DNA from: Candidatus Poribacteria bacterium | Lineage (GTDB): Bacteria; Poribacteria; WGA-4E; WGA-3G | Direction of reading: 5' to 3' | DNA length: 38,010 nt | NCBI GenBank assembly: GCA_047516705.1 | Contig: JAKZUG010000097.1 | Span: 1 to 38,010 of the forward strand | In this document: positions 1-24,436 of the stretch, in pieces | How positions within the stretch are numbered: the first letter of the stretch is position 1 | How the letters are laid out: each line of letters starts with the position of its first letter | Position numbers and translations under genes: made by a program | The notes under the pieces: generated by a model | Told to the model about the DNA's origin: nothing | Database searches by the model: none | The model's input: only the letters and a program-made list of their open reading frames with translations

Positions 1-2832
1 ACCTTGATTGATGCCTATAAAAATCAGGGGAAACTTGAAGAGTTGGAGACTATTTTTAAGAACAAACTCGAAAAGGATCCAAATAATCCAGCTGTTCTTG
101 AAATGGTTGCTGAAATTTATCGGAATGCGCGCAACTATGAAAAGGCGGCAGAAGTATATCAGGCACTCTGCAAAGCGCAGCCCGGCAATACCCGTAGTTT
201 TTTCTATGCTGCTGCTGCCCTACAGAAGAACAACCAACCAGATCTCGCAAAAGAGTTGATCAGTCAAGGTGAGACCGCGGTTTCAACCAACCCTCGCGCA
301 CAATTCGACATCTTTCTTTATCTGACACTCGCGTCCATCTGTGCTGAAGGTGAACTGTACGACTCGGCGATCAAATTCGCTGAAGAGACAATCGCTATGA
401 GCGCACGGTTGGGCGGGGGACTTTCGTCGCTCATGGAATATGTATACGAGATCCTTGGGAAGAGCTACCTCGGTGCAAAACGGTACCAGGAAGCCGTTGA
501 TGCGTATAAACAGATGGCAAATGTTGCCAGATTTGACCAACGGAGAGAAACAGCAGAGAACGCGATACGCCAAGCTTACATAGAGGGGAACCTCTATGAA
601 AAGCAGATTCCCGAGCAGCTACAGAAAATTCAGGAAAATCCTGATGACCTGGATGCCCGCTTCGCGCTTGCTGAAAACTACGAATTAAGCGACCAGGTCG
701 ACGAAGCAATCGCACAATACCAGAAAATCAGCGAACTGCAGCCTGATGACGCGCAGTGGCAGAAAAAAATTGGCGATCTCTACCAAAAACAACGTCAGAC
801 AGACGAAGTGGTTGAGGATACAGCACTGAACTTGCCTGGAGACCGGAGTTTCGTGGAAATTACGGATAGTGCTGCACTGAACAATATCAATCAACAGGTG
901 ACCGTGACCGCATGGATCAAACCGACCGATTTTCCGAACAGGTATACGCCTATCCTTTACAAGGGCGACAAGCGGACACCCGAAATCAGCAACCGAAGCT
1001 ACGCACTCTGGCTACGAAACGATGGTAGAATTCAGTTCGCTTCATCACCAAGTGGTGAACCAGAAAAGTTCGCCTTTTCACCTACCGGATCAATTACACT
1101 CAACAAATGGCACCACGTCGCCGGTGTCGTTGATGCCCCAAGAAATGTCATTAAACTGTTTATTGATGGTGCCGAAGTTGGGAGCAATGATTTTAGAGGG
1201 AATCCAAACATTTATGAAAGCCATCTGCCAGTCCGAATCGGTGGTTCACATGAAGAAGAGCGGACATCACACGCCTCATTTGTGGGGCAAATTGATAGAG
1301 TTTCTGTCTGGAATGTCGCTTTGACTGAGGCAGAGATTCGTGCCAACATGAATGCTCAGTTGAAAGGGAACGAACCCGGCTTAGTCGCCTACTGGAAATT
1401 CGATGAAGAAACGGAGGGGCACATCCCTGATGTGTCACCTAACAAGAGTAGTGGTAAACTGGTCGCGGATGCTAAATTGGAATCTTACACCCGTCCAGTT
1501 GAAACTATTGCAGGGGCAGAACGGTTAGCACAGGCAGGGGCAGCCTATGAAAAAGCAATTCAGCGTGAACCGAATTCGTACGAATTGTATGACCTGTTGG
1601 CACAAACCCACATAAAAGCAGATCGGTTGGTAGAGGCTGAAGCGGTGTATCATCGCGCTTTGGATGCTTCCCTTGAAAGTAGCGAACATGATGCCGCGAT
1701 CCGCGGTATCTGGAAACTTTACACTGACAAAGATGAGAAAAATGAGGGGATTGCCGTCCTTGAAGCCTTACGACCGCAAATGGAGACAAGTCCTGTTTTA
1801 CTTGAATTGTTAGGTGATGCTTACAAAGAGATAGGTAGTGTCGAGAAAGCAGATGCAGTATATACCGAGTGGTTAGCGATTCGACAAAAAGAGGCGAACA
1901 GGCGACAAAGTCCCGCTGGCTATCTCAGCCTTGCAAGACAGATTCTTAGCAAAGGTATCATGCCGGAAAAAGGGTTGGAATACGCTGAACGCGCATCACG
2001 GATGGGGTCGGGGTCAAGTTATACCACAACGTTGGCGCAGGCGTATCTCGCGAACGAACGATATGATGAGGCCTTGCAAGCGTTAAAACGCGGTCTAAAT
2101 ACCGCAACATCAGGAAGTTTTGAACGCCAGTTGTTCTCCCAAGTTACGCAAGCCGGCAAAAATGCAAAGGACAAAGAGCGTTTTGCTGAGATGTTGAACA
2201 CATTGATTGACGCTATGCCCGACAATCCGAGCGCTTATCTAAATCTCAACTTAGTGCTGGCTGAATTCTACCGTGAGAACGAAATGCCCGAAAAGGCAAA
2301 AGCGTATATTCAAAAAACTGGATTTATCACTGAAGACAGATGGTTGACGCTCGGCCCATTTGACAATACTAATGGGATCGGCTATGATACCGCTTACATT
2401 CCAGAAGACGCAACGCAGATCGACACAACTACAAAATACGATGGCGTGGACGGACAGGTGAGTTGGCAAAAAAGCACCGATGGGACCCTGAACGGCTATA
2501 TTGACCTCGGCGAGAACGTTGACTGGCGTGTTGCCTATGCGTTTGCAACTGTTACCTCACCTGATGAACGAGAGGCACAAATCCGTTTTGACAGCGACGA
2601 CCAAGGGAAAGTATTTCTAAACGGCAAAGAAGTTGTCACAAACACAGGGGCACATAGCGCAGTAATGGACCGCTATACTGTTCCTGTAACGCTCAAACCC
2701 GGCAAAAATAGTATCCTCGTCAAGGTCTGTAATGAAAAAAAACAGTGGGAATTCTATCTGCGGATTACCGATCCGGATGGAAAACCGTTTACAGATCTAA
2801 AAATAGGCAATTCAGATCCTGAGCTCCATTAG
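1..2832 (+). CDS. TPR-repeat protein with a central LamG (Laminin_G_3-like) domain and a C-terminal beta-sandwich domain. The 5' end is cut by the window edge.
   Basis: The frame is open from nt 1, and the TTG at 4 is only the track's start. TPR-like helical repeats flank a LamG signature (VTVTAWIKP...WHHVAGV...LFIDG...GQIDRVSVWNVALTEAEI). The C-terminus (GKVFLNGKEV...LKPGKNSILVKV...WEFYLRITDPDGKP) looks like a galactose-binding/PA14-like sandwich. Confidence 0.8.
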   Translation, partial: TLIDAYKNQGKLEELETIFKNKLEKDPNNPAVLEMVAEIYRNARNYEKAAEVYQALCKAQPGNTRSFFYAAAALQKNNQPDLAKELISQGETAVSTNPRAQFDIFLYLTLASICAEGELYDSAIKFAEETIAMSARLGGGLSSLMEYVYEILGKSYLGAKRYQEAVDAYKQMANVARFDQRRETAENAIRQAYIEGNLYEKQIPEQLQKIQENPDDLDARFALAENYELSDQVDEAIAQYQKISELQPDDAQWQKKIGDLYQKQRQTDEVVEDTALNLPGDRSFVEITDSAALNNINQQVTVTAWIKPTDFPNRYTPILYKGDKRTPEISNRSYALWLRNDGRIQFASSPSGEPEKFAFSPTGSITLNKWHHVAGVVDAPRNVIKLFIDGAEVGSNDFRGNPNIYESHLPVRIGGSHEEERTSHASFVGQIDRVSVWNVALTEAEIRANMNAQLKGNEPGLVAYWKFDEETEGHIPDVSPNKSSGKLVADAKLESYTRPVETIAGAERLAQAGAAYEKAIQREPNSYELYDLLAQTHIKADRLVEAEAVYHRALDASLESSEHDAAIRGIWKLYTDKDEKNEGIAVLEALRPQMETSPVLLELLGDAYKEIGSVEKADAVYTEWLAIRQKEANRRQSPAGYLSLARQILSKGIMPEKGLEYAERASRMGSGSSYTTTLAQAYLANERYDEALQALKRGLNTATSGSFERQLFSQVTQAGKNAKDKERFAEMLNTLIDAMPDNPSAYLNLNLVLAEFYRENEMPEKAKAYIQKTGFITEDRWLTLGPFDNTNGIGYDTAYIPEDATQIDTTTKYDGVDGQVSWQKSTDGTLNGYIDLGENVDWRVAYAFATVTSPDEREAQIRFDSDDQGKVFLNGKEVVTNTGAHSAVMDRYTVPVTLKPGKNSILVKVCNEKKQWEFYLRITDPDGKPFTDLKIGNSDPELH

Positions 2833-2842
2833 GGATAGGTTC

Positions 2843-3203
2843 CACCCCAGGCCCGGTAGGTTCGGTTTCATGAAGTTTAAGTATTTAAATCGGTAATCCC
2901 CAGGCCCGGTAGGCGCGGTTTGCAACCGCGCCGGGCATACACCAAGAACGCCACAGTTATCCCAATGAAATTACCAAATTATTTTTTGAATCTTCATCTA
3001 ACCGAACCGGGCTTGCCCAGGAAGGGTAGATTCGGTTTCTAACCGGGGTCCCGCCTTTTACGGGGAAGGGGCATACCTCCGTGCTGTCATTTCTTGTTCC
3101 TTAGTCCCGTAGGGTTTATTTGCTTGGGTATTTCTTCAGTATGTTTATAGAAAAGGATTGCCTTCCCTTCTTTAGCCCCGTAGGGGCGGCATGTTTATAG
3201 AAG
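2843..3203. repeat. Composite intergenic REP array. It contains a split REP (arms 2859-2867 ggttcggtt and 3000-3008 aaccgaacc) with a complete short REP (2898-2935) in its loop, a degenerate REP (3015-3046), and modules 3106-3152 and 3174-3203.
   Basis: Read directly: ccccaggcccGGTAGGcgcggtt-tgc-aaccgcgccggg; cccGTAGGgtttatttgcttgggtatttcttcagtatgtttatagaa; agccccGTAGGggcggcatgtttatagaag. The same modules recur at 4485-4837, 21446-21684 and 29519-29763. Confidence 0.85.
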
Positions 3204-3938
3204 ATGAATAGCAAGAAAAGAATCCCAAAAATTAATGACGATTCGCCGCTGAATCCTACAAACTGGATCGCAAGCGTATCTTCGGAACATTTCATCTATA
3301 AAACAGAAGTAAACCGTCCATGGAACCCGGAAACGGTGCTTGAATTATTAGAACAGGCACATAAAGAGTTTGTAAGGCTTATGGGAGCGGGATTAAGTAT
3401 TGTGATTGAAGTCGAAGATCGAATCTGTGAACCTAATAACTTAGGCGCGCGAGCCGAGATAGACAAACAGATACATTCCCCTCAAGATTTCACCATAGAA
3501 GTCAAATTTATCTGTGAGTTTCCACAGCACTATGGTTATACAGAGCAAGAACGGGATCTCGCATACCATTTTTTTGTGCATGAGCTATTTCATTGCTGGA
3601 TTGGTGGGAAGGTATCGCCTCGTTATGATCCGGTTGTTGAAGCAATTACCCAGTATATGACAGATTGGGTGCTCGTCCATTTGGGATGGTGCAGCGAAGA
3701 TCTGCTCATTCGCGGGCGGGTCAGCAGCCAACAAATCATAGACAACGCAACCCCACCACACACCACCATCGCTAAATACAAACGCCTGTTTCACCAAATG
3801 CACACCGACGATCCAGAGCACCTACTCGCTTTCTGTAGAGATTTAGCAGACTGTTTCCGCCAGCAGCGAACCCGCGCAGAAACAGATGTATCTCCTGTTT
3901 TACAGCGATACTTGGGAACAGCGTTGGAAGAAGATTAG
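3204..3938 (+). CDS. Hypothetical protein with an HExxH zinc-metallopeptidase motif (gluzincin-like HELFHCW...E)
   Basis: 244-aa ORF. It has FFVHELFHCWIGGK followed by a Glu 16 residues after the second His. I recognise no other family signature, and the start codon directly abuts a repeat module. Confidence 0.55.
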   Translation: MNSKKRIPKINDDSPLNPTNWIASVSSEHFIYKTEVNRPWNPETVLELLEQAHKEFVRLMGAGLSIVIEVEDRICEPNNLGARAEIDKQIHSPQDFTIEVKFICEFPQHYGYTEQERDLAYHFFVHELFHCWIGGKVSPRYDPVVEAITQYMTDWVLVHLGWCSEDLLIRGRVSSQQIIDNATPPHTTIAKYKRLFHQMHTDDPEHLLAFCRDLADCFRQQRTRAETDVSPVLQRYLGTALEED

Positions 3939-3950
3939 AAAAACATTAAT

Positions 3951-4074
3951 AGGACTTACGCAGCAAGCATCTGTTCGCCGAGGTCCCCGTGCCTCGGCGA
4001 ACTATCTTCTCACGGTTTTGCTTGCAGAATCCAAAGCGGACGCTTTCTTCCCAAATGGCGTTTGCGTAAGTCCT
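3951..4074. mobile_element. MITE-like element with 12-bp perfect terminal inverted repeats (aggacttacgca / tgcgtaagtcct) and an internal 11-bp-stem hairpin (3973-4002)
   Basis: The TIRs were read directly. The inner hairpin is gttcgccgagg-tccccgtg-cctcggcgaac. A shorter relative with the same TIR lies at 16709-16773. Confidence 0.6.
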
Positions 4075-4119
4075 AATTGATACGGTTACAATCCAACTTA
4101 CGTCTGAAGGAGGTTTGGC

Positions 4120-4467
4120 ATGCTTTATATTCTTTACGGTCTAAACCTTGCCGCACACTTGACTCTTGTAGGGCTGCTGATATTTTTATGTTTCCGGACG
4201 AAATCAAAAGGTTTGATACTCATTAGTGCCGTACTTCTTATGAGTGAGATCTCTGGTTTGATTTTTCAACAAGTTGTTAAGTCAGATTGGTGGCGATGGA
4301 AGCCGGGTAAAATGATGAACGAAGGAATACTGAATATGAGTGCCTTGGATCTCTTATTGACAGTTGCCATGGTACACCCCTTAGTGTACAGATGTTTATG
4401 TTTACTCGGTGTTTTTCTAATCTATAAAGAGTGGCGACAGGGAAAGTTCCGCTATCCTCCAACCTGA
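4120..4467 (+). CDS. Small integral membrane protein (3-4 predicted TM helices), function unknown
   Basis: 115-aa ORF with an aggagg SD about 9 nt upstream of the ATG. Hydrophobic segments include LNLAAHLTLVGLLIFLCF, LILISAVLLMSEISGLIF and LLLTVAMVHPLVY...LLGVFLIY. Confidence 0.6.
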   Translation: MLYILYGLNLAAHLTLVGLLIFLCFRTKSKGLILISAVLLMSEISGLIFQQVVKSDWWRWKPGKMMNEGILNMSALDLLLTVAMVHPLVYRCLCLLGVFLIYKEWRQGKFRYPPT

Positions 4468-4484
4468 ACATTTGGTCAGATTTT

Positions 4485-4837
4485 CCACCCCAGGCCCGGT
4501 AGGCGCGGTTTGTAACCGCGCCGGGTTTTAGACCCATACCTTGCTTACCCATAAATGTCAATTTAGCGGTCCCCCAAGCCCGGTAGGTTCGGTTTTGCGG
4601 CGTACTCGCCCAAATTTGGTTTCCCACACGCGGAAACCCAATTTTGCTTCGCAGTGAGAATGCTTTACATTTGCGATCTGCATTCCTAACCGAACCGGGT
4701 CTTAGACACAAACTGTGTATCCCCCAAAAACCCTCTTGAATCCCAGAGGGTTATTTGCTTGGGTATTTCTTCAGCATGTTTATAGAAGTGCATTTTCACG
4801 CTCTTTTTAGCCCCGTACCGACGATATGTTTATAGAG
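4485..4837. repeat. Composite REP array. It contains a short REP (4485-4525), a long-loop REP (4571-4699; arms 4586-4594 and 4688-4696, with a further hairpin insertion at about 4617-4673 in the loop), and modules 4742-4788 and 4808-4837.
   Basis: Module order and sequence match 2843-3203, 21446-21684 and 29519-29763. GTAGG precedes each stem. Confidence 0.85.
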
Positions 4838-4844
4838 ATTCTCG

Positions 4845-4874
4845 TTGACATTCTCGTATTGAATATGCTACCAT
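4845..4874 (+). promoter_or_regulatory. Possible sigma70-type promoter for the ATPase/PIN pair (TTGACA-N18-TACCAT)
   Basis: TTGACA at 4845-4850 and TACCAT at 4869-4874, 75 nt upstream of the ATG at 4950. This is a motif match only. Confidence 0.3.
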
Positions 4875-4949
4875 AACCAATGGAATTACTGAGGACGTGC
4901 CAATCACAATATCTCAGAACTTAGCGATCACGATTCTGGAGATAACAAC

Positions 4950-6269
4950 ATGAGCATTACCCAATTCACAATAGAGGAAGTCCGCTGTTTCCGCGAACGT
5001 CAGACGCTTGAAATCCGTCCCCTGACTTTTTTGGTCGGAGAAAACAGCACCGGTAAAACCACAGCATTGGCGTGTTTTCATGTATTAGCGGATTATTTGC
5101 ACGGTAAGGGAGTGGATTTTAATTTCCATCCCTATTCCATGGGAACCTTTAGGGATATTGTCAGAAATAGCAAGAAAGAAGAGAAAAATTTTAAACTCGG
5201 GTTTACTTATAAACACAATAATGAAGATATTCAGACAACGGTTGAGTTTGTTGAGAAGGGCGAAGGAATAGAACCTACTGTTAATTCGGTAGCGATAAAA
5301 CTTGCTGATGGTGAAATTGTTATTCAGGTTGAAGATACAACAAAGAAGGAACCGCGTTTAGATTCGTTTGACAAGAAACAGAATCAATATAAAATAATTT
5401 GTGGTGTTGATATATTGAATGAACCTCGCTTCTCTCTTTTTCTCCATCCCTATTTTTTTAGGAATGAATCTCAGGGCGAAACCTGCTTCTTGAGATATTT
5501 AGATAGAACAAGTGAAAAATTTGAAGAAAGCATCTATCGACCGTGGGATGTCTTTAAAACCTTGTCAGTGTTTAGTACATCACCAGTTCGCTCACGTCCT
5601 AAACGAACTTATGATCCGACAAGGGAGTTTGATGATCCAGAAGGCAGTGATGTACCTATGTATTTAATGCGGATTGAAGCGACTAAGAAAAAGAGTTGGG
5701 AGGAATTGAAAACACAATTAGTCGAGTTTGGCAGGAATTCTGGGCTATTCGAGAACATAGACGTAAAAAACCTCGGACGCTCCTTGGGGGCTCCATTCCA
5801 ACTACAGGTCAAGGTGCGCGGTCCTAAAGCAAATATCATTGATGTTGGTTACGGGGTCAGTCAAATTTTGCCAATTTTGGTGCAGATTTTAAATCCCAGT
5901 ATTTCTAAGCGTGCTCGGGATAATCCTATGCAGTCAATTTTTTCTTTATTACAACAACCTGAAATTCACTTGCACCCAAGAGCACAGGCGGAATTCTCTT
6001 CTTTGTTGGTGAAATTGGCTAACAAGGGTGATCAGTCATTCATCATTGAGACGCACAGCGACTATATGATTGACCGAGCACGGATTGAGATTAGGAAGGG
6101 AAACATTCGTCCCGAGGATGTGTCCCTAATCTATTTTGAACCAAAAGGAAATATTGTCAAGGTGCATAATATCACTTTTGATAAGATGGCTAACATGGTT
6201 GGAGTTCCATCACATTATGAAAAATTTTTCCTGAAAGAAACTAACCGGCTCATGGGGTTTGAGAATTAA
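4950..6269 (+). CDS. ABC/AAA_21-AAA_15-type (DUF3696/COG4938-like) ATPase
   Basis: Walker A is GENSTGKT. A signature-like VGYGVSQILPIL is present. The Walker B/D-loop-like motif is LLQQPEIHLHPRAQ and the H-loop is ETHSDYMIDR. The N-terminus (FTIEEVRCFRERQTLEIRPLTFLVGEN) is typical of SMC/OLD-like defence ATPases. No Toprim or HNH domain is visible. Confidence 0.8.
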   Translation: MSITQFTIEEVRCFRERQTLEIRPLTFLVGENSTGKTTALACFHVLADYLHGKGVDFNFHPYSMGTFRDIVRNSKKEEKNFKLGFTYKHNNEDIQTTVEFVEKGEGIEPTVNSVAIKLADGEIVIQVEDTTKKEPRLDSFDKKQNQYKIICGVDILNEPRFSLFLHPYFFRNESQGETCFLRYLDRTSEKFEESIYRPWDVFKTLSVFSTSPVRSRPKRTYDPTREFDDPEGSDVPMYLMRIEATKKKSWEELKTQLVEFGRNSGLFENIDVKNLGRSLGAPFQLQVKVRGPKANIIDVGYGVSQILPILVQILNPSISKRARDNPMQSIFSLLQQPEIHLHPRAQAEFSSLLVKLANKGDQSFIIETHSDYMIDRARIEIRKGNIRPEDVSLIYFEPKGNIVKVHNITFDKMANMVGVPSHYEKFFLKETNRLMGFEN

Positions 6270-6270
6270 T

Positions 6271-6690
6271 ATGTGTGTTATTTTGGATGCTAACTGCATT
6301 GGCGACTTTAATGACTCAGCCAATGAGGATATGAAACCTGTACGACAGTGGTTGGAGAGGAAAAATAGTAAAATCGTTTACTCTGACACCGAGAAATTTA
6401 GAAGAGAATGGGATGAAGGTGGTGGCTACCGGTTGAGGAGAGAATTGCAAAGAAGAAATAAACTCAAATTGGTGTCAGTTCAGGACGTAGAAGAAAGAGA
6501 GAATGAACTCAGTGGGAGAGTAGTATCGGATGACGAACATATTATTGCATTAGCCCTCACTGCCCAGGCGAAAGTTTTGGTATCCAGCGACAGAAGACTA
6601 ATCAGAGATTTTAAAGATCATGTGACACAAGGAAGAGTTTATCAAACGAAAGGGCATAAACGTTTATTGAAAAATGATCTTTGCCCTTAA
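6271..6690 (+). CDS. PIN-like domain protein (putative nuclease), translationally coupled to the upstream ATPase
   Basis: The ATG at 6271 lies 1 nt after the ATPase TAA (6267-6269); an alternative TTG at 6259 overlaps the ATPase. The N-terminal strand is CVILDANCIGDF. The C-terminal signature is SDDEHIIALALTAQAKVLVSSDRRLIRDF, matching the D..IAA.A......L.T.D..F pattern of VapC/PIN proteins. Confidence 0.65.
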   Translation: MCVILDANCIGDFNDSANEDMKPVRQWLERKNSKIVYSDTEKFRREWDEGGGYRLRRELQRRNKLKLVSVQDVEERENELSGRVVSDDEHIIALALTAQAKVLVSSDRRLIRDFKDHVTQGRVYQTKGHKRLLKNDLCP

Positions 6691-6692
6691 AG

Positions 6693-6728
6693 TGTAGGCA
6701 GCGCGATCCCCGGAGACATCGCACTACC
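6693..6728. repeat. REP-like GTAGG-prefixed imperfect palindrome between convergent genes, a possible bidirectional terminator
   Basis: The sequence is tGTAGGcagcGCGATccccggagacATCGCactacc. It lies between the stop at 6690 (+) and the stop at 6742 (-). Confidence 0.6.
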
Positions 6729-6741
6729 GCATAATTTACCT

Positions 6742-8415
6742 TTACGAAGGCATCCACGTCCGCGGCGCAATCCCTTCCACATGCGTTTTCACATCCACAA
6801 CCGCAGGCTTACCTGAAGCAAACGCCTGATCCAACGCACCCGCAAGTTCACTCGGCTTGTTCACCGTAATCCCAAAGCACCCCATCGACTCCGCCATCTT
6901 CGCGAAATCCGCATCAGGGAACAACCAGAGTTCATCAGAACCGGATGTCCGACCACCGTAAACCGACTCAACGCCACCTTGCTCCTGATTCAACGAGTGA
7001 TTATTATTCACAACGATAACAGCATTAATGCCACATTTCATCGCTGTATCCAGTTCCGCTATATGATACCAGATGCCGCCATCACCTGTGAAGCAGAGCA
7101 CCGGTCTGTCCGGTTGCGCGCACTTCGCACCCATCGCCGCGGGTACTCCCCATCCCAACGAACCCGAACATCGTATGAAAATCTGGTCGGGGTGTTTAAA
7201 ATCAATCATCGTACCAGTCCAGATCCCCGAATGTCCAGTGTCGGACACAAGGATTGCGTCTGATGGGAGATAGTCTGTCAGTTCACGGCAGAGTCGCTCC
7301 GGTAGCATCGGTAACCGCTCCGAGTTCACTTTATCGCTAACGCTCTCTTTCCAGTTCTGCACTAATTCCTGTACACGGTTAACCCAGTCGGTTCGTGGGG
7401 ATGTGGTTTCTGCCGCTGCAATCATCCGGCGCAGTGTATTCCTCACATCTCCCTGCATCCCTAACTGAATTGGATAGTTCCGTCCGAGTTCATCTGGATT
7501 AATATCGAGTTGTATAATCGGTGTCCCTTGGGGTGGAATCTTATACCCGTTGGTCACCTGTCCACCAGTATGGCTCCCGATAAAGAAGACGAGATCTGTC
7601 TCACAGACAGCTTGATTCGCACACGCCCGCGAATATGAACCGGGAGTGCCTACCGCCAGTGGATGGTCACTGGGGAACATCGCTTTTGCATTCAAGGAGG
7701 TCGCCACTGGGATTGAGAGTTTCTCGGCAAATGCTACAAGTTCTGCGCGTGCATCGGAAGCCGTTACGCCGCCACCCGCCACAATGATAGGTCGTTTCGC
7801 ATCGGTGAGCAATCTGATAGCGTCCGTTACCTTTTCCGCTTCTGCCTTTGGTCGGAAGGGTGGTAGTTGGGCAAATGTGTCTTCAATGATTACCTCAAAT
7901 TCACCCTCGCGATCGATGACTGCTGACCCTGCGATACCTTCCAAGTCGAGATGAGCAGGTCCCGGTGTTCCTGTCGTTGCTGAACGGAACGCTTGGCGTA
8001 GATAGAACGGAAGCTGTTCCCGTGTCCCGACATAAGCACTATATTTGGTAACCGCAGAAAACGGATTAACGTGATCCACCTCTTGATAGGCATGCCGTTG
8101 TTGATTGATTAGGTTCTCCCGACCAGTCAGGGCAATTACTGGCGAGCAGGCGAGATAGGCATCTTGTAACCCCGCGGCGAGGTTAACCGCCCCAACCGAT
8201 TGTGCCATACAGAGGCTTGGGCTACGGTTCACGCGAGCGTACGCATCCGCCATGTATGCAGCCGCTTTCTCGCCGTGTGTCTGAACCCGCTTAATACCAA
8301 GATTTTCCATCTCCATTAAAGCCCGCGGTCCGATATACGGCATAAAAAAAACGTGCGTAATCCCGTAACCGTGAACAGTTTCTGCAATAAATCGAGCACC
8401 CGTCATTTTCGGCAT
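6742..8415 (-). CDS. Thiamine-diphosphate-dependent enzyme (acetolactate synthase large-subunit-like family)
   Basis: 557 aa. The N-terminal Pyr domain is ARFIAETVHGYGITHVFFMPY...GEKAAAYMADAYAR. The TPP-binding motif is GDGGIWYHIAELDTAMKCGINAVIVVNNN. An SD aggaga lies upstream of the ATG at 8415. Substrate is unknown and there is no small subunit nearby. Confidence 0.85.
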   Translation of the reverse strand: MPKMTGARFIAETVHGYGITHVFFMPYIGPRALMEMENLGIKRVQTHGEKAAAYMADAYARVNRSPSLCMAQSVGAVNLAAGLQDAYLACSPVIALTGRENLINQQRHAYQEVDHVNPFSAVTKYSAYVGTREQLPFYLRQAFRSATTGTPGPAHLDLEGIAGSAVIDREGEFEVIIEDTFAQLPPFRPKAEAEKVTDAIRLLTDAKRPIIVAGGGVTASDARAELVAFAEKLSIPVATSLNAKAMFPSDHPLAVGTPGSYSRACANQAVCETDLVFFIGSHTGGQVTNGYKIPPQGTPIIQLDINPDELGRNYPIQLGMQGDVRNTLRRMIAAAETTSPRTDWVNRVQELVQNWKESVSDKVNSERLPMLPERLCRELTDYLPSDAILVSDTGHSGIWTGTMIDFKHPDQIFIRCSGSLGWGVPAAMGAKCAQPDRPVLCFTGDGGIWYHIAELDTAMKCGINAVIVVNNNHSLNQEQGGVESVYGGRTSGSDELWLFPDADFAKMAESMGCFGITVNKPSELAGALDQAFASGKPAVVDVKTHVEGIAPRTWMPS

Positions 8416-8666
8416 AAACTTTTCTCCTCTATCTTTTGGCGTAACTTATACCATTTCTATTTGTATCGTTTTCATAACAGGTCGTCTCCAGAAGTCCCCC
8501 TGATAAGGGGGATTTAGGGGTTTCTTATACGGATAGCACTTTATTTAGGAAATATCTTCCGTAAATGAAACATAATATATTAGAAATGGTATTACAATGC
8601 GATATAGGCTTCATTTTACCAATTTTCAACATAACTTACAAGTATCAACTTAAGATCGAAATAAAT

Positions 8667-8696
8667 TTGATAAGAAATCACCAAAGATGTTATAAT
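8667..8696 (+). promoter_or_regulatory. Candidate sigma70 promoter for the first LamG paralogue (TTGATA-N18-TATAAT)
   Basis: TTGATA at 8667-8672 and TATAAT at 8691-8696, about 90 nt upstream of the ATG at 8787. Confidence 0.4.
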
Positions 8697-8786
8697 GACT
8701 TCAAGGATTTTAGCAAACTATGGGTCTCAAAACTACACCACGGATTTTCATAGATGCGGAAACCTTTCCGCAAGGAGCAACGCACG

Positions 8787-9629
8787 ATGAAAAATCTAAT
8801 CTATCTCTTCACATTCACGCTAATTATCACCACATTTCTCCAAAATGGATATACCGAACCAGTCGTGACAGACGGACTCGTGAGTTATTGGACGTTTGAC
8901 GAGCAGGACATTGCCGGCGGTACGGTTAAAGATGTCTGGGGTGAAAATGACGGCAAAATAGTCGGTAATCCGAAAGTCGTTGACGGACAAGTTGGGGAAG
9001 CACTCGAATTTGACGGCTCTGACGATTATGTGAACTTGACGAACCTCGGCGATTTCGGAGAGCAAGTCGGTACGTCTACGTTTGAAGCTTGGGTCAAGAC
9101 CAGTTTCAAAAATGACTGGACAACCCTTTTCAAAGTCCTTGACCAAGGTTGCAATATGGCATGGGCAATCGATGTCAACCGCAGCGCGAAAGCGGGGTTT
9201 CCGTTTGCTGCGGACATTGTTCACTACTACGTCCGTCAGCAATCAGCGGCAGGCTGTAACGCTATCGCTGTTGAAATTGAGTTTCCACTCTCCGATGGAA
9301 AATGGCATCACATTGTTTTCGCAATTGTAGACCCAGGTGAGTCCGAGGTCAGCATCTATATGGATGGTGAACCACAAGAGATTATTGTCGGCGACGCAAA
9401 GAAACTCGACACTTTTATGCCGTTTGTGGAACCCGTCTATATCGGTGCAGCGAACAATCGCGGCAACGTTGAGCGGCATTTCCCCGGTGTCATTGATGAA
9501 GTTCGTATCTACGACCGTCCGCTCACCGCAGATGAAGTGACCCGAAATTTTGAATCCAAAATCGGATTGTCTGTTCAGGCTGCCGAGAAGCTACCGATCG
9601 TCTGGGGAACCCTGAAGACAGAATTATAG
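8787..9629 (+). CDS. Secreted LamG (Laminin_G_3) domain protein, paralogue 1 of 3
   Basis: The start was chosen at the internal ATG preceded by aaggag, which gives the signal peptide MKNLIYLFTFTLIITTFLQNG. LamG motifs are GLVSYWTFDE, ALEFDGSDDYVNL, WHHIVFAI and IDEVRIYDRPLTADEV. Confidence 0.85.
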   Translation: MKNLIYLFTFTLIITTFLQNGYTEPVVTDGLVSYWTFDEQDIAGGTVKDVWGENDGKIVGNPKVVDGQVGEALEFDGSDDYVNLTNLGDFGEQVGTSTFEAWVKTSFKNDWTTLFKVLDQGCNMAWAIDVNRSAKAGFPFAADIVHYYVRQQSAAGCNAIAVEIEFPLSDGKWHHIVFAIVDPGESEVSIYMDGEPQEIIVGDAKKLDTFMPFVEPVYIGAANNRGNVERHFPGVIDEVRIYDRPLTADEVTRNFESKIGLSVQAAEKLPIVWGTLKTEL

Positions 9630-9818
9630 AACAGGAAATGAGTATTCCCTTTGTTCATGTGATGGATTTCTAACGTCTCCAAATTTAGACTTCTATAAGA
9701 AGGTTGGAAAATGAAAGAATCTGTCTATCAAAAATATTTGAAGGCAGACGCTATAAGTGTCTATTGTGTAGGCAGGATTTTACTGCGCGACTTTCGCGCA
9801 CCTAAAGGAGCGGTTATT

Positions 9819-10661
9819 ATGAAAAGCCTAATCTATCTCCTCGCAACCACGCTAATTATTACTATGCTTCTCCAAAACGGGCACACACAACCCATCGTGA
9901 CAGACGGACTCGTGAGTTATTGGACGTTTGACGAGCAGGACATTACCGGCTTTACAGTCAAAGATGTCTGGGGTGAAAATGATGGTAAAATAGTCGGTAA
10001 TCCGCAAGTCGTTGATGGGCAAGTCGGAGAGGCACTCGAATTTGACGGTGCTAACGACTATGTCAACTTGACGAACCTCGGCGATTTTGGAGAGAAAATC
10101 GGTACATCTACATTTGAGGTTTGGATGAAAACCAGTTTTAAAAATGACTGGACAACCCTTTTCAAAGTCCTTGACCAAGGTTGTAACATGGCATGGGCAA
10201 TTGAGCCCAACCGGAGCGCGCAAGCCGGGTTCCCATTTGCTGAAGGTATCATTCACTACTACGTCCGTCAGCAATCGGCAGCGGGCTGTACCGCCATCGC
10301 TGTTGAAATCGAATTTCCGATCTCCGATGGGCAATGGCACCATATCGTTTTCGCAATTGTGGATGCTGGTAAAGCCGAAGTCAGCATTTATATGGACGGC
10401 GAGCCACAAGAGATCATCGTCGGCGACGCAAAGGAACTCGACAATTTTGTTCCATTTGTAGAACCCATCTTTATCGGTGCGGGGAATAATCGCGGTGCCG
10501 TCAGCCGACATTTCCCTGGCACCATTGATGAAGTCCGCATTTATGATCGACCCCTCACAGCGGATGAAGTGACCCGAAACTTTGAATCCAAAATAGGTTT
10601 GTCTGTTGAAGCAGCCGAGAAGCTACCTATCGTTTGGGGCAACTTGAAGACACAATTGTAG
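9819..10661 (+). CDS. Secreted LamG domain protein, paralogue 2 of 3
   Basis: The ATG at 9819 follows aaaggag and gives the signal peptide MKSLIYLLATTLIITMLLQNG. By eye it is roughly 85% identical to paralogue 1. The track start at 9711 lies in the conserved leader. Confidence 0.85.
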   Translation: MKSLIYLLATTLIITMLLQNGHTQPIVTDGLVSYWTFDEQDITGFTVKDVWGENDGKIVGNPQVVDGQVGEALEFDGANDYVNLTNLGDFGEKIGTSTFEVWMKTSFKNDWTTLFKVLDQGCNMAWAIEPNRSAQAGFPFAEGIIHYYVRQQSAAGCTAIAVEIEFPISDGQWHHIVFAIVDAGKAEVSIYMDGEPQEIIVGDAKELDNFVPFVEPIFIGAGNNRGAVSRHFPGTIDEVRIYDRPLTADEVTRNFESKIGLSVEAAEKLPIVWGNLKTQL

Positions 10662-10712: not shown

Positions 10713-10742
10713 TTGCATAAAAACGTTGGAGAATGATATAAT
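10713..10742 (+). promoter_or_regulatory. Candidate sigma70 promoter for the third LamG paralogue (TTGCAT-N18-TATAAT), followed by a conserved leader hairpin at 10741-10771
   Basis: TTGCAT at 10713-10718 and TATAAT at 10737-10742. The hairpin is atctgcct-N15-aggcagat. A homologous, weaker version lies upstream of paralogue 2 (about 9690-9760). Confidence 0.45.
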
Positions 10743-10839
10743 CTGCCTATCAAAAAGATTTGAAGGCAGATTCCATAAGTGTCCATTGTATAGGTATACC
10801 TTACTGCATGACTTCTGCGAATTCAAAGGAGCAGTTACC

Positions 10840-11811
10840 ATGAAAAAACTCATCTTTCTCCTTACATTCATATTTACGATTACTATGTTTTCCCATAACG
10901 GGAATACGGCACCGGTGACAGATGGGCTTGTGAGTTACTGGACGTTTGACCAGCAGAACATTGCCGGCAACACAGCCAAGGATGTCTGGGGCAAAAACGA
11001 TGGAACAATTGTAGGAAATCCCAAACGTGTTGCCGGTCGAGTGAACGGTGCTTTGGAATTTGACGGCTCTGATGATTATGTGAACCTGACAAACCTCGGT
11101 GATTTTGGGGGGCAGGTCGGTACGTCTACATTTGAAGCTTGGATCAAAACTAGTTTGAGGGAAGACCGCTGGACCACGCTTTTCAAAGTTCGAGATGTTG
11201 ACTTTGCTGACCGTGATCCAGGGGGCATCAAAATCGGAGGCCCGGACTGTGGTATGGGGTGGGGAATTGATCTCAATGGATGGGCGAAACCCGCCATTTT
11301 TGCCAAATTGGGACTGAAACCATGGCATTTTGTTGAAAACCTTATAATAAATGACGATGATAGCATTAGTTTCGATAAGGACATCATTCGCTTTTATCTT
11401 ACTCATAAATTAAGAGCGCATAGATGCTGGAATTCAACCTCTGGATGGCGGTTCCCGATTTCAGATGGAGAATGGCATCACCTTGTTTATATAAACGGCG
11501 TGCCTTATGTAGATGAAAACGGACGCGAGTTGCGAGAAAGAGCTATCTTTATAGACGGTAAACGGGAATGGCTCAGTAGGCACCGATGGGAACCCGGCGA
11601 TTTTATCCCGTTCACGGAACCTGTCTATCTTGGCGCGGGGAACAATCGTGGTGAGGCAGAAGCGTTTTACAACGGCATCATTGACGAAGTCCGTATTTAC
11701 AACCGACCTCTCACTGCAGACGAAGTGAGCCAGAATTTTGAAATCGGACTATCCGTTGAGGCAGCCGAGAAACTGCCTGTCGTTTGGGGTGCTCTGAAGA
11801 CAGCGCAGTAG
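10840..11811 (+). CDS. Secreted LamG domain protein, paralogue 3 of 3, with roughly 40-50 extra residues (indels in the central part of the fold)
   Basis: The ATG at 10840 follows caaaggag and gives the signal peptide MKKLIFLLTFIFTITMFSHNG. The N- and C-terminal LamG motifs match paralogues 1 and 2, and the extra sequence (residues DVDFADRDPGG...SISFDKDIIRFYL) sits between them. Confidence 0.85.
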   Translation: MKKLIFLLTFIFTITMFSHNGNTAPVTDGLVSYWTFDQQNIAGNTAKDVWGKNDGTIVGNPKRVAGRVNGALEFDGSDDYVNLTNLGDFGGQVGTSTFEAWIKTSLREDRWTTLFKVRDVDFADRDPGGIKIGGPDCGMGWGIDLNGWAKPAIFAKLGLKPWHFVENLIINDDDSISFDKDIIRFYLTHKLRAHRCWNSTSGWRFPISDGEWHHLVYINGVPYVDENGRELRERAIFIDGKREWLSRHRWEPGDFIPFTEPVYLGAGNNRGEAEAFYNGIIDEVRIYNRPLTADEVSQNFEIGLSVEAAEKLPVVWGALKTAQ

Positions 11812-11844: not shown

Positions 11845-12630
11845 ATGCTAACACCTCACGAAAAATGGTTCTTTGACCACCACGGATTCATTATCCTCCG
11901 CAAAGTCGTGCCACCTGAGGATGTCGAGCGAATGATTGAACTCGGTAACCAGTGGCACGAAACGCCTCTTGATAAATTGCCATCACCGCTCGCGTCCACT
12001 TCCCGTACCGGTAAAGCTTCGCCAACGATTGCCCACTGGATCAATCATATCCAATACGGTGATCCGGTGTTCCAACGGCTTGTCCTCAACCGAGAGATTA
12101 TGCGCGTGATTATTGCCCTGACGCGAGGGACTCCTTGTCTCGTTGACTGTGCACTAACTAAGAACTATAAAACCTCCGATGACATCCACTTCCATGCGGC
12201 GGGTAAAGATTACAGTGTTGAAGAATTAGGACCTCGCGCAGGTTTCCTCAATGCCGGTATCTCCTTGGTTGATGTACCACTCGGAACAGGGTTCGTTTGC
12301 CTGCCCGGAAGCCATAAGCGTAACTTTGATCCACCAGAGAACCTCTCCATTTACGACGGACCGCCTACGGTTATCAATGTCCCAGTCAACGCCGGCGACT
12401 GTGTTATCTTTACAGAAGCACTCTATCACGGCGGAAGACGCTGGACCGAAGATTATCCGCGCTACACTATCTTCAATCGGTATATTGACAACGGATCACA
12501 CAGTGCCCTTCCTATTGAAAGCCATAAACATTTGATTTCGGATGAGGTTTATGAATTGGAACAGCCAGCAATTCACGGGCAACGGAAACAGGTAGTAGAA
12601 CAAATCCTAAGCGAGTTAGAGGCTAACTGA
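11845..12630 (+). CDS. Phytanoyl-CoA dioxygenase (PhyH) family Fe(II)/2-oxoglutarate oxygenase
   Basis: 261 aa. The N-terminus FFDHHGFIILRKVVPPEDVERM is typical of PhyH. His-containing segments are DDIHFHAAG and TEALYHGG. It is tightly spaced with its neighbours (33 nt and 9 nt gaps). Confidence 0.65.
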   Translation: MLTPHEKWFFDHHGFIILRKVVPPEDVERMIELGNQWHETPLDKLPSPLASTSRTGKASPTIAHWINHIQYGDPVFQRLVLNREIMRVIIALTRGTPCLVDCALTKNYKTSDDIHFHAAGKDYSVEELGPRAGFLNAGISLVDVPLGTGFVCLPGSHKRNFDPPENLSIYDGPPTVINVPVNAGDCVIFTEALYHGGRRWTEDYPRYTIFNRYIDNGSHSALPIESHKHLISDEVYELEQPAIHGQRKQVVEQILSELEAN

Positions 12631-21445: not shown

Positions 21446-21684
21446 CCCCAGGCCCGGTAGGTGCGGTTTTGCGGCGTACTCGTCCAAATGCGATCTGCAT
21501 TCTAACCGCACCGGATTTTAGGCACAAACCTTATATCCCCTAAAACGCCTCTTGAGCCCCAGAGGGGCGGCATCTGTGTAGAAACATGTATTAATAAAAA
21601 AGAAGCCCAGAGGGGCGGCATCTGTGTAGAAGCGCGTATCACATAAAAGTCAGGTTCCCCAGAGGGGCGGCATTTGAAGATAAC
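21446..21684. repeat. Composite REP array: a long-loop REP (21446-21514; arms 21460-21468 and 21504-21512) followed by three copies of the cccagaggggcggcat... module (21554-21585, 21604-21633, 21657-21684)
   Basis: Read directly. The 35-nt loop ttttgcggcgtactcgtccaaatgcgatctgcattct recurs at 4595-4687 (interrupted) and 32092-32131. Confidence 0.85.
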
Positions 21685-24206: not shown

Positions 24207-24436
24207 CAGAGGCATTCAGTTCTCCTTAATCTCGATTTTCCAGTGATAGACTCTTCGCTGTAGGAGCGATCTCCCCCTTTCCAGTAACTAGTGGGGACCC
24301 CTGTCGCGACTCCCAACTGACCGCTGACTGCTAATTGCTATTTTGTTGACAACCACTCCCCACAGAGCCATTCAGTCTCCTTTTTTTCTCCAGTTTTCAT
24401 CCCAGGCCCGGTAGGTGCGGTTTCCTAACCGCACCG
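24207..24436. repeat. Repeat cluster: an attcagttctcc-type element end (24207-24225), a type-2 REP whose loop carries a ~29-nt insertion (24258-24313), a second element end (24363-24380) and a short type-1 REP (24401-24436)
   Basis: Read directly: ctGTAGGAGCGATctcc[ccctttccagtaactagtggggacccctg]tcgcgact, and cccaggcccGGTAGGtgcggtt-tcct-aaccgcaccgg. Confidence 0.75.

Follow-up and report, generated by a model that had tools for sequence, protein, structure and literature searches.

A two-gene ABC ATPase–PIN operon of Candidatus Poribacteria is a candidate anti-phage module of the HEC-03 kind

A PIN-fold protein encoded beside an OLD-type ABC ATPase

A 38,010-nucleotide (nt) stretch of Candidatus Poribacteria DNA (assembly GCA_047516705.1, contig JAKZUG010000097.1; the whole stretch is hereafter the window) carries at positions 4950–6690 two adjacent forward-strand genes, encoding an ATP-binding cassette (ABC) ATPase of 439 amino acids (aa) and a stand-alone PIN-fold protein of 139 aa. 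By analogy with characterized systems, this two-gene operon is probably an anti-phage, abortive-infection-type module in which an ABC ATPase is coupled to a nuclease effector, a reading to which we assign a probability of about 0.6. Its architecture is closest to that of HEC-03 (Payne et al. 2024, bioRxiv 10.1101/2024.01.29.577857), and its ATPase is closest to NsnB of Menshen (Li et al. 2025, PMC12065111), to PDC-M55A and to the HEC-03 ATPase. Counting for a defence role are a conflict-type evolution, with swaps of the PIN gene and of an insert in the ATPase, a patchy spread over several phyla, low G+C content and the genomic context of a related locus, L003/L028.

The two genes were delimited by their open reading frames (ORFs) and by their homologues. 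The ATPase gene (4950–6269, forward strand), supported by profile matches, ends in TAA and is separated by 1 nt from the ATG at 6271 that opens the PIN gene (6271–6690, forward strand), which is supported by its predicted fold. Homologues of the PIN protein begin MC[VI]ILD, placing its start at ATG 6271 and not at TTG 6259, and those of the ATPase begin MSITQF...; because homologues begin at the same residues, both start codons are taken as correct. The two ORFs, the TAA–1 nt–ATG junction and the motifs quoted in an initial annotation of this DNA were all found in the ORF list and translation.

The fold of the 139-aa protein was predicted by AlphaFold2 from a 45-sequence alignment, giving an alternating beta/alpha topology with a predicted local distance difference test score (pLDDT) of 93.8 and a predicted template modelling score (pTM) of 0.87. 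In a Foldseek search of the Protein Data Bank (PDB), the best matches of this model were nearly all VapC/PIN proteins (probability 1.00, template modelling (TM) score 0.5–0.65), among them 5x3t_B (E = 6.7e-4, probability 1.00), 5h4g_B (TM 0.65), 7by2_B, 2fe1, 3h87_A and 1v8p, and a Foldseek search of viral structures returned nothing at E ≤ 0.001. A profile search of the family against PDB sequences gave chance coiled-coil matches only, so the PIN relationship is visible only by fold comparison. The Pfam PIN model (PF01850) matched the protein over its full length at 21.6 bits, below the cut-off of 23.6, and across 45 family members PIN and DUF4411 were each matched in 8 of 45, all weakly. The family is therefore a PIN sequence family outside the coverage of Pfam, NCBIfam and PADLOC v2.

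Five acidic residues, D6, E46, D88, D107 and D113, were invariant or nearly so both in the 45 sequences and in a set of 78. In the predicted structure D6 follows beta-1, E46 lies in the helix after beta-2, D88 is at a helix N-terminus, D107 follows beta-4 and D113 falls in the next helix. We conclude that the 139-aa protein has the PIN fold and an acidic site that is intact as judged from sequence and secondary-structure positions, and it is probably the effector of the pair. The PIN-like partner proposed in the initial annotation is upheld by the fold model, the VapC/PIN matches and the conserved acidic residues. Beside the acidic site, conservation is likewise complete or almost complete at C2, H90, H129 and C138, which may bind a metal or form a disulphide, a feature that would be atypical of VapC.

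The upstream protein was placed in the OLD/AAA_15 clade (NsnB/HEC-03/PDC-M55A-like), in agreement with the ABC-class ATPase initially proposed. It matched Pfam AAA_15 (E = 8.8e-24; 85.2 bits against a cut-off of 32.1) and AAA_21 (1.1e-12), and its best PADLOC matches were all defence ATPases, namely PDC-M55A (1.4e-41, 141 bits, residues 1–423) and NsnB (6.2e-41, 139 bits, residues 3–423), followed by AriA (3.3e-28, 97.5 bits), HEC-03B (1.3e-21, 75 bits) and PtuA (~36 bits), with Old, GajA and LmuB-type models also among the matches. NCBIfam gave sub-threshold matches only, and DUF3696 (PF12476) gave none at E ≤ 1 in the Pfam search. At E ≤ 1e-10, 5982 homologues of the ATPase were found.

The ATPase carries GENSTGKT, GYGVSQILPIL, LLQQPEIHLHPRAQ and ETHSDYMIDR, and its motifs could be assigned from the family alignment (all on the forward strand). 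Walker A, GENSTGKT (residues 30–37; 5037–5060), is invariant in 77 of 77 family members. The signature-like GYGVSQ (residues 300–305; 5847–5864) has the GxG form, and this GYG variant is invariant across the family, as is HLHP. In the H-loop region ETHSD (residues 367–371; 6048–6062), E367, T368, H369, S370 and D371 are all invariant. Walker B reads LLQQPE (residues 333–338; 5946–5963), with QQ in place of the acidic dyad: Q335 and E338 are invariant, position 336 is Q in 76 of 77, and the motif is kept in a relative of only 41% identity. The ATPase head aligns with that of Thermus scotoductus OLD (6p74), where the QQ pair faces the EE of IIEEPE. An above-threshold profile, Walker A and the HLHP/H-loop elements thus mark the protein as OLD-type, whereas the acidic Walker B dyad expected of such ATPases (EE or DE before PE) is replaced by QQPE.

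Two other regions of the ATPase stand out by their divergence. The identity profile revealed a hypervariable insert at residues ~90–200 (5217–5549, forward strand), with a mean identity of 0.40 compared to 0.72–0.78 elsewhere; column homozygosity falls to 0.23–0.37 at residues 121–200, and against the 41%-identical relative the insert gives a gap-rich alignment with little identity. Judged from this pattern, it may be a sensor or specificity region. The C-terminal tail (residues 376–439; 6075–6266, forward strand) is the sole segment whose divergence tracks that of the PIN protein (rho 0.30, p 0.01 in comparisons with the window; 0.46 over all pairs). This modest signal suggests, by analogy with the C-terminal domain of NsnB, that the tail could be the docking surface for the PIN protein. 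Separately, FSTSPVRSRPKRTYDPTREFDDPEGSDVPMYLM (5559–5690, residues ~204–247) belongs to the best-conserved sequence of the ATPase, although its AlphaFold2 pLDDT was 26–31; it may be a Q-loop equivalent or an interface ordered only in a complex, and in NsnB the Q-loop Q is replaced by Arg. The AlphaFold2 model of the whole ATPase (49-sequence alignment) had a pLDDT of 55 and was not used for fold searches or domain calls.

The make-up of the two proteins bears on what such a module might act against. Kinship of the ATPase with OLD, GajA and LmuB-type ATPases, together with the alignment of its head with Thermus scotoductus OLD, would suit a defence against plasmids, transposons or damaged or abnormal nucleic acids in which the ATPase senses DNA ends or structures and not a phage protein, a mode of action proposed for ATPases of the OLD, Lamassu or Wadjet type. 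The protein has no coiled-coil or DNA-clamp insert, however, hypervariability of its insert fits recognition of a protein trigger better, and VapC-type PIN nucleases are usually RNases. We regard such a target as quite improbable.

The pair is conserved and its parts have been exchanged

The breadth of the family was assessed through its PIN component. A word-indexed search recovered 308 PIN homologues, and an exhaustive profile search recovered 1,673 representative clusters at E ≤ 1e-3, of which 871 passed the stricter E ≤ 1e-10, the total of ~1,670 being counted in clusters at 50% identity. The top 150 profile relatives were all stand-alone proteins or fragments of no more than 183 aa. In a scan of 185,579 species genomes, 217 relatives were confirmed, a lower bound given that short peptide patterns were used. 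The best 80 of these 217 came mostly from Candidatus Poribacteria, with others from Latescibacterota and Caldilineaceae and one from Owenweeksia. Two copies (L026 and L046) occur in one genome, and the window holds one.

Pairing was examined in 92 related loci from four named phyla and from unassigned metagenome contigs. In almost all of them a homologous ATPase gene lies directly upstream of the PIN gene, and at 87 of 89 loci its end is 5–13 nt from the start of the PIN match, so that the neighbourhood seen in the window is conserved elsewhere. Wider gaps were found at L055 (29 nt) and L066 (198 nt), and at L051 and L067 what adjoins the PIN gene is no more than a C-terminal piece of the ATPase. 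An ATPase gene also precedes the PIN gene in two of three remote members, L090 and L092 (L093 is too short for a call); the L090 ATPase is 41% identical over its full length and keeps QQPE. This near-universal pairing with tight spacing points to co-translation of the two genes.

The histories of the two genes could be compared at loci that share one genomic address. The cassette sits at the same place, beside the same thiamine pyrophosphate (TPP)-enzyme gene, in 28 loci from 28 other species' genomes. Across these syntenic loci, mean identity to the window was 92% for the TPP enzyme (range 90–96%), 73% for the ATPase (61–95%) and 54% for the PIN protein (47–96%), and the PIN protein at non-syntenic loci, many of them in other phyla, likewise averaged 54%. 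At the closest locus, L010, the ATPase, PIN and TPP proteins are all 95–96% identical to those of the window. ATPase identity and PIN identity were not positively correlated (rho −0.19 over all loci and −0.37 over the syntenic ones). The nearest relatives of the window ATPase are other copies at the TPP locus, whereas those of the window PIN protein, L010 aside, are copies from other loci.

Individual loci located the points of exchange. At L079, L059, L065 and L081 the ATPase is 70–100% identical almost throughout, and PIN identity falls to ~50% at the gene boundary. At L037, L011 and L014 the ATPase core is kept at ~0.7–1.0, while the insert drops to 0.3–0.5. The ATPase insert and the PIN gene have each been swapped independently between lineages. 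Independent swaps of a sensor-like insert and an effector are described for polymorphic conflict systems, including Menshen NsnC (Li et al. 2025).

Composition, genomic context and alternative functions

The cassette differs from its surroundings in base composition. The G+C content of 4950–6690 is 39.9%, compared to 47.4% for the window, and is the lowest of any stretch of its size there (standard deviation of same-size windows, 2.4 points). G+C at third codon positions is 0.39 for the ATPase gene and 0.37 for the PIN gene, against 0.44–0.56 in most neighbouring genes, and the adjacent TPP-enzyme gene has 52.5% G+C. The A/T-richness initially reported is therefore real, but the 27–38% G+C quoted for it was too low, as 300-nt windows across the cassette range from 34.7% to 43.3%. 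In related loci, cassette G+C lies under that of the flanks in 70 of 71 cases, by 7.2 points on average, and tracks that of the host (rho 0.72).

Conserved synteny in 28 other species' genomes and a strongly conserved ATPase core are what a housekeeping pair of Poribacteria, active in RNA processing or ribosome quality control, would also display. Such a role is nonetheless very improbable: only 217 relatives, as a lower bound, were confirmed in 185,579 species genomes, one genome holds two copies, G+C falls below the flanks in 70 of 71 loci, and the PIN gene and the ATPase insert have been swapped between lineages.

Support for defence from the neighbourhood is clearest in Owenweeksia sp. At L003 (2988–6435; L028 is on the same contig) the pair comes directly after the type I specificity gene of a restriction–modification cluster (N6_Mtase/Eco57I, DUF4145 and Methylase_S), and the first 4 nt of the ATPase gene are shared with the end of that gene. 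Nowhere else is the cassette so clearly part of a known defence operon as at L003/L028. Other fixed addresses of the cassette are after a sulfatase gene in Latescibacterota, after a VWA/GATase1-like gene and before FUR. At five Latescibacterota loci (L027, L029, L032, L074 and L083; ~5115–6710) the ATPase start overlaps the stop of a 532-aa ORF, which most likely belongs to the sulfatase family found in nine neighbours, and the cassette there seems to be expressed as the last part of a housekeeping operon.

Several observations weigh against a defence function of the operon. At 51 non-syntenic loci, genes for sulfatase, VWA/GATase1-like, FUR and Vgb-lyase proteins predominate among the immediate neighbours, which include only ~3 type I specificity subunits and 2 ResIII proteins; the defence-island signal is accordingly weak, and most loci lie outside recognizable defence islands. 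A tblastn search with the PIN protein found no homologue in phage and plasmid collections. The 139-aa protein gave no match in NCBIfam and none at E ≤ 1 in PADLOC, the HEC-03 PIN model included, and an ATPase with QQ in Walker B may be inactive. The candidate defence or abortive-infection module put forward in the initial annotation keeps the support of a validated precedent, HEC-03, and of an ATPase from defence-associated clades, but gains little from the surroundings of most loci.

A further point is that stable residence at one locus in 28 other species' genomes fits a toxin–antitoxin-like addiction or stress module equally well. In such a module the PIN protein would be a VapC-type toxin and the ATPase its neutralizer, selfish or growth-regulating and with no dedicated anti-phage role. 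The PIN model is nearest to VapC toxins, solitary cassettes are scattered among housekeeping genes, and low G+C content and a patchy distribution also fit toxin–antitoxin modules. However, the partner is a 439-aa ABC ATPase of defence-associated clades and not a small DNA-binding antitoxin, HEC-03 gives phage defence with the same architecture, and an external target that keeps evolving is suggested by the hypervariable, sensor-like insert and by the exchange of effectors. The two functions also overlap mechanistically, as PARIS-type systems behave like triggered toxin–antitoxin pairs. Pure addiction without an anti-phage role is, on this balance, unlikely, and the anti-phage module remains the preferred reading.

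Flanking sequences and neighbouring genes

Upstream of the ATPase gene, the likely expression signals are a GGAG ribosome-binding site read from the sequence (4938–4941, forward strand), 8 nt before ATG 4950, and a promoter-like TTGACA–18 nt–TACCAT motif with an upstream TG (4845–4874, forward strand), ~75 nt before the ATPase start. The latter is a weak candidate for the operon promoter; the count of promoter-like sites in the region is not above shuffled expectation.

The cassette had been described as bounded by repetitive extragenic palindromic (REP) elements, with a 350-bp array upstream and one copy downstream. A repeat search confirmed a real palindromic repeat upstream (copies within 4488–4710, forward strand), part of the flank and not of the module. 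It is the interspersed palindrome CCCCAGGCCCGGTAGGYGCGGTTT...AACCGCRCCGG, with copies starting near 4495 and 4579. Six forward-strand sites were found in the window (2852–2868, 2905–2921, 4495–4511, 4579–4595, 21453–21469 and 24407–24423), against 0.07 expected; those at 2905, 4495 and 24407 have a short-hairpin form, and those at 4579 and 21453 a long form with the shared insertion TTTGCGGCGTACTCG.CCAAA. The repeat looks like a REP- or miniature inverted-repeat transposable element (MITE)-like element of the Poribacteria genome. Because copies also occur at 2852, 2905, 21453 and 24407, it is a genome-wide intergenic element, neither a module boundary nor a continuous 350-bp array. The downstream 'REP' (6693–6728) occurs just once in the window and has little folding stability (−11.6 kcal/mol, z = −1.16); it belongs to a weak imperfect hairpin predicted between the convergent PIN and TPP-enzyme genes (6692–6732, no strand assigned). 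A REP-bounded mobile element was therefore rejected. An Rfam scan of 2800–7000 gave no meaningful match.

Acquisition by horizontal transfer, proposed initially from composition and repeat flanks, holds in part. Transfer between phyla is evident but old, and what is recent is recombination within the cassette. A recent acquisition in this genome was rejected on the synteny in 28 other species' genomes. Low G+C characterizes the whole family, and the repeats are genome-wide.

The genes around the cassette in the window include a cluster encoding Laminin_G_3 (concanavalin-like) proteins at 4–2832, 8754–9629, 9711–10661 and 10726–11811, made up of three tandem paralogues and a 942-aa protein with TPR and LamG domains, and followed by a PhyH dioxygenase gene (11845–12630). 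This cluster is kept beside the cassette in the syntenic Poribacteria loci. Two ORFs, at 3204–3938 (244 aa) and 4120–4467 (115 aa), have no Pfam match and recur upstream of the cassette in related genomes at 37–89% identity. The 244-aa product has an HELFH motif and could be zinc-protease-like, and the 115-aa product looks hydrophobic and membrane-like. With ~32% G+C, the A/T-rich stretch at 8416–8753, which separates the divergent TPP-enzyme and first LamG genes, falls even below the cassette.

Proposed mechanism and significance

A working model of the anti-phage module can be drawn by analogy with those for HEC-03, PARIS, Septu and Menshen, on which all of its steps rest. At rest, oligomers of the ATPase would keep the PIN protein inactive through the ATPase C-terminal tail. 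On infection, the hypervariable insert (~90–200) would recognize an infection cue, and binding of ATP, not its fast hydrolysis, would alter the complex and free or activate the PIN nuclease; the QQPE form of Walker B suggests that hydrolysis is slow. The released nuclease would then cut RNA (tRNA, rRNA or mRNA) in a Mg2+-dependent manner and halt translation.

If the defence function holds, the operon adds a widespread family to the ABC ATPase–nuclease defence superfamily, one concentrated in the poorly studied Poribacteria, Latescibacterota and Caldilineaceae and with a PIN component that automated defence annotation probably misses. The QQ Walker B would provide a natural test of activation by ATP binding alone, which Payne et al. 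2024 left open for HEC ATPases. Natural chimeras, with the same ATPase and another PIN protein or the same core and another insert, offer material for mapping trigger sensing against nuclease docking. Judged from its conserved residues, the stand-alone PIN protein with an intact site plausibly connects, in evolutionary terms, with the inactive PIN-like adaptor found in Menshen NsnC. A broader proposal, which we hold only tentatively, is that the ~1,670 PIN clusters form a large unnamed defence family built from three exchangeable parts (a conserved ATPase core, a sensor insert open to swapping and a PIN effector that is likewise swapped but still catalytic) around a hydrolysis-impaired QQPE ATP-binding switch, and that this family is possibly ancestral to Menshen NsnB–NsnC. 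The PIN domain would then later have become an inactive adaptor fused to other nucleases in Menshen.

Comparison with known systems

The combination of an ABC ATPase with a PIN-like effector had initially been thought to match no named system. This does not hold: HEC-03 is such a pair and has models in PADLOC, and the partner of NsnB in Menshen, NsnC, is PIN-like too. HEC-03, validated with the system of Pseudomonas cichorii ATCC 10857, consists of a DUF3696-type ABC ATPase of 461 aa followed by an overlapping VapC-like PIN gene encoding 157 aa; both genes are needed for phage defence, and the system is toxic when induced (Payne et al. 2024). The proteins are WP_025259138.1 and WP_025259137.1 (coordinates 322707–324092 and 324079–324552). 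In PADLOC, HEC-03A names the PIN model and HEC-03B the ATPase model, on which the true proteins score 284 and 765 bits, respectively.

The window pair shares with HEC-03 the arrangement of adjacent, co-directional genes, with an ABC ATPase gene followed by a VapC-like PIN gene. The two ATPases are homologous (30% identity over 148 aa, E = 5e-15) and both cross-match the NsnB and PDC-M55A models, the HEC-03 ATPase with 177 bits on NsnB and 126 bits on PDC-M55A. Their motifs correspond, with GFGVSQVLPALV and MEQPEIHLHP in HEC-03 against GYGVSQILPILV and LLQQPEIHLHP here, and GFGVSQ against GYGVSQ. In contrast, the window ATPase matches the HEC-03 ATPase model over two partial stretches only, with 75 bits compared to 765 for the true member; Walker B reads EQPE there and QQPE here, and the window ATPase has no Pfam DUF3696 match. 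The two PIN proteins have no significant similarity (hhalign probability 0.5%, hidden Markov model score 1.2 bits, global-alignment z 0.37). The window pair is also not embedded in Hma or another defence system. A by-eye alignment of the PIN proteins (E5/D6, E52/E46 and a shared C-terminal LCP) had no statistical support and serves as a lead only; the HEC-03 PIN protein ends with an LCP-containing Cys/His motif.

In Menshen (Millman et al. 2022), the NsnB ATPase is coupled to NsnC, and the ParB-DUF262 sensor NsnA is required (Li et al. 2025). The NsnB C-terminal domain is the predicted docking site of the N-terminal PIN-like domain of NsnC, the major NsnC PIN-like domains are all reported to lack D-E-D-D, and NsnC has a separate C-terminal nuclease; NsnB is reported to have a GxG signature and no canonical DE Walker B, with EN at that position (Li et al. 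2025). The window ATPase matches the NsnB model nearly end to end at 139 bits, and in both systems a PIN-fold partner follows an ATPase with a GxG signature variant and no canonical DE Walker B. That score marks a clade and not a family, because 177 bits are reached on this model by the HEC-03 ATPase. Unlike in Menshen, the window has no gene for NsnA (ParB-DUF262 with ParBDB): the upstream 244- and 115-aa ORFs have no Pfam match and the 942-aa protein is TPR/LamG, and DUF262 was not among the 25 commonest of 39 Pfam families in 99 neighbouring proteins. Nor does the window ATPase match, at E ≤ 1, the DUF3696 model (PF12476) expected at the C-terminus of a Menshen ATPase. The partner also differs, being a 139-aa stand-alone PIN protein that keeps its acidic residues here and an inactive PIN-like domain joined to a nuclease in NsnC. 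The Menshen study was seeded from ParB-DUF262 (Li et al. 2025) and would therefore miss pairs that have no NsnA.

PDC-M55 is a three-gene cassette, FAM_00005>>FAM_02935>>FAM_00004, listed as a candidate only (Payne et al. 2024); in the literature no main-text mention of it was found, and it is defined in a supplementary table only. PDC-M55A is the best-scoring PADLOC model for the window ATPase, but this A model alone matches: no PADLOC model recognizes the window PIN protein, and a third gene is lacking. Because the HEC-03 ATPase also scores 126 bits on PDC-M55A, the 141 bits of the window ATPase are likewise clade-level.

More distant parallels are found in PARIS (AriA/AriB) and Septu (PtuA/PtuB), which also join an OLD-type ABC ATPase to a small nuclease in two genes. 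As summarized by Li et al. 2025, the OLD-type ATPase of these systems sequesters or regulates the small nuclease, and tRNA is cut on activation. Their effectors are Toprim (DUF4435) and HNH proteins, not PIN, and the AriA and PtuA matches to the window ATPase are partial. VapBC resembles the pair through its toxin, in that the PIN model is closest to VapC (5x3t_B, 7by2_B, 5h4g_B and 3h87_A) and the acidic site is kept. The upstream gene of the pair, however, encodes a 439-aa ABC ATPase and no VapB-like small antitoxin, and the window PIN protein falls below the Pfam threshold and has the extra invariant or near-invariant C2, H90, H129 and C138.

Taken together, the pair lies outside HEC-03, Menshen and PDC-M55 and is a sequence-distinct family of a known, validated kind. 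By its sequence features it combines a distinct QQ-Walker-B subfamily of ATPases with a distinct family of PIN proteins.

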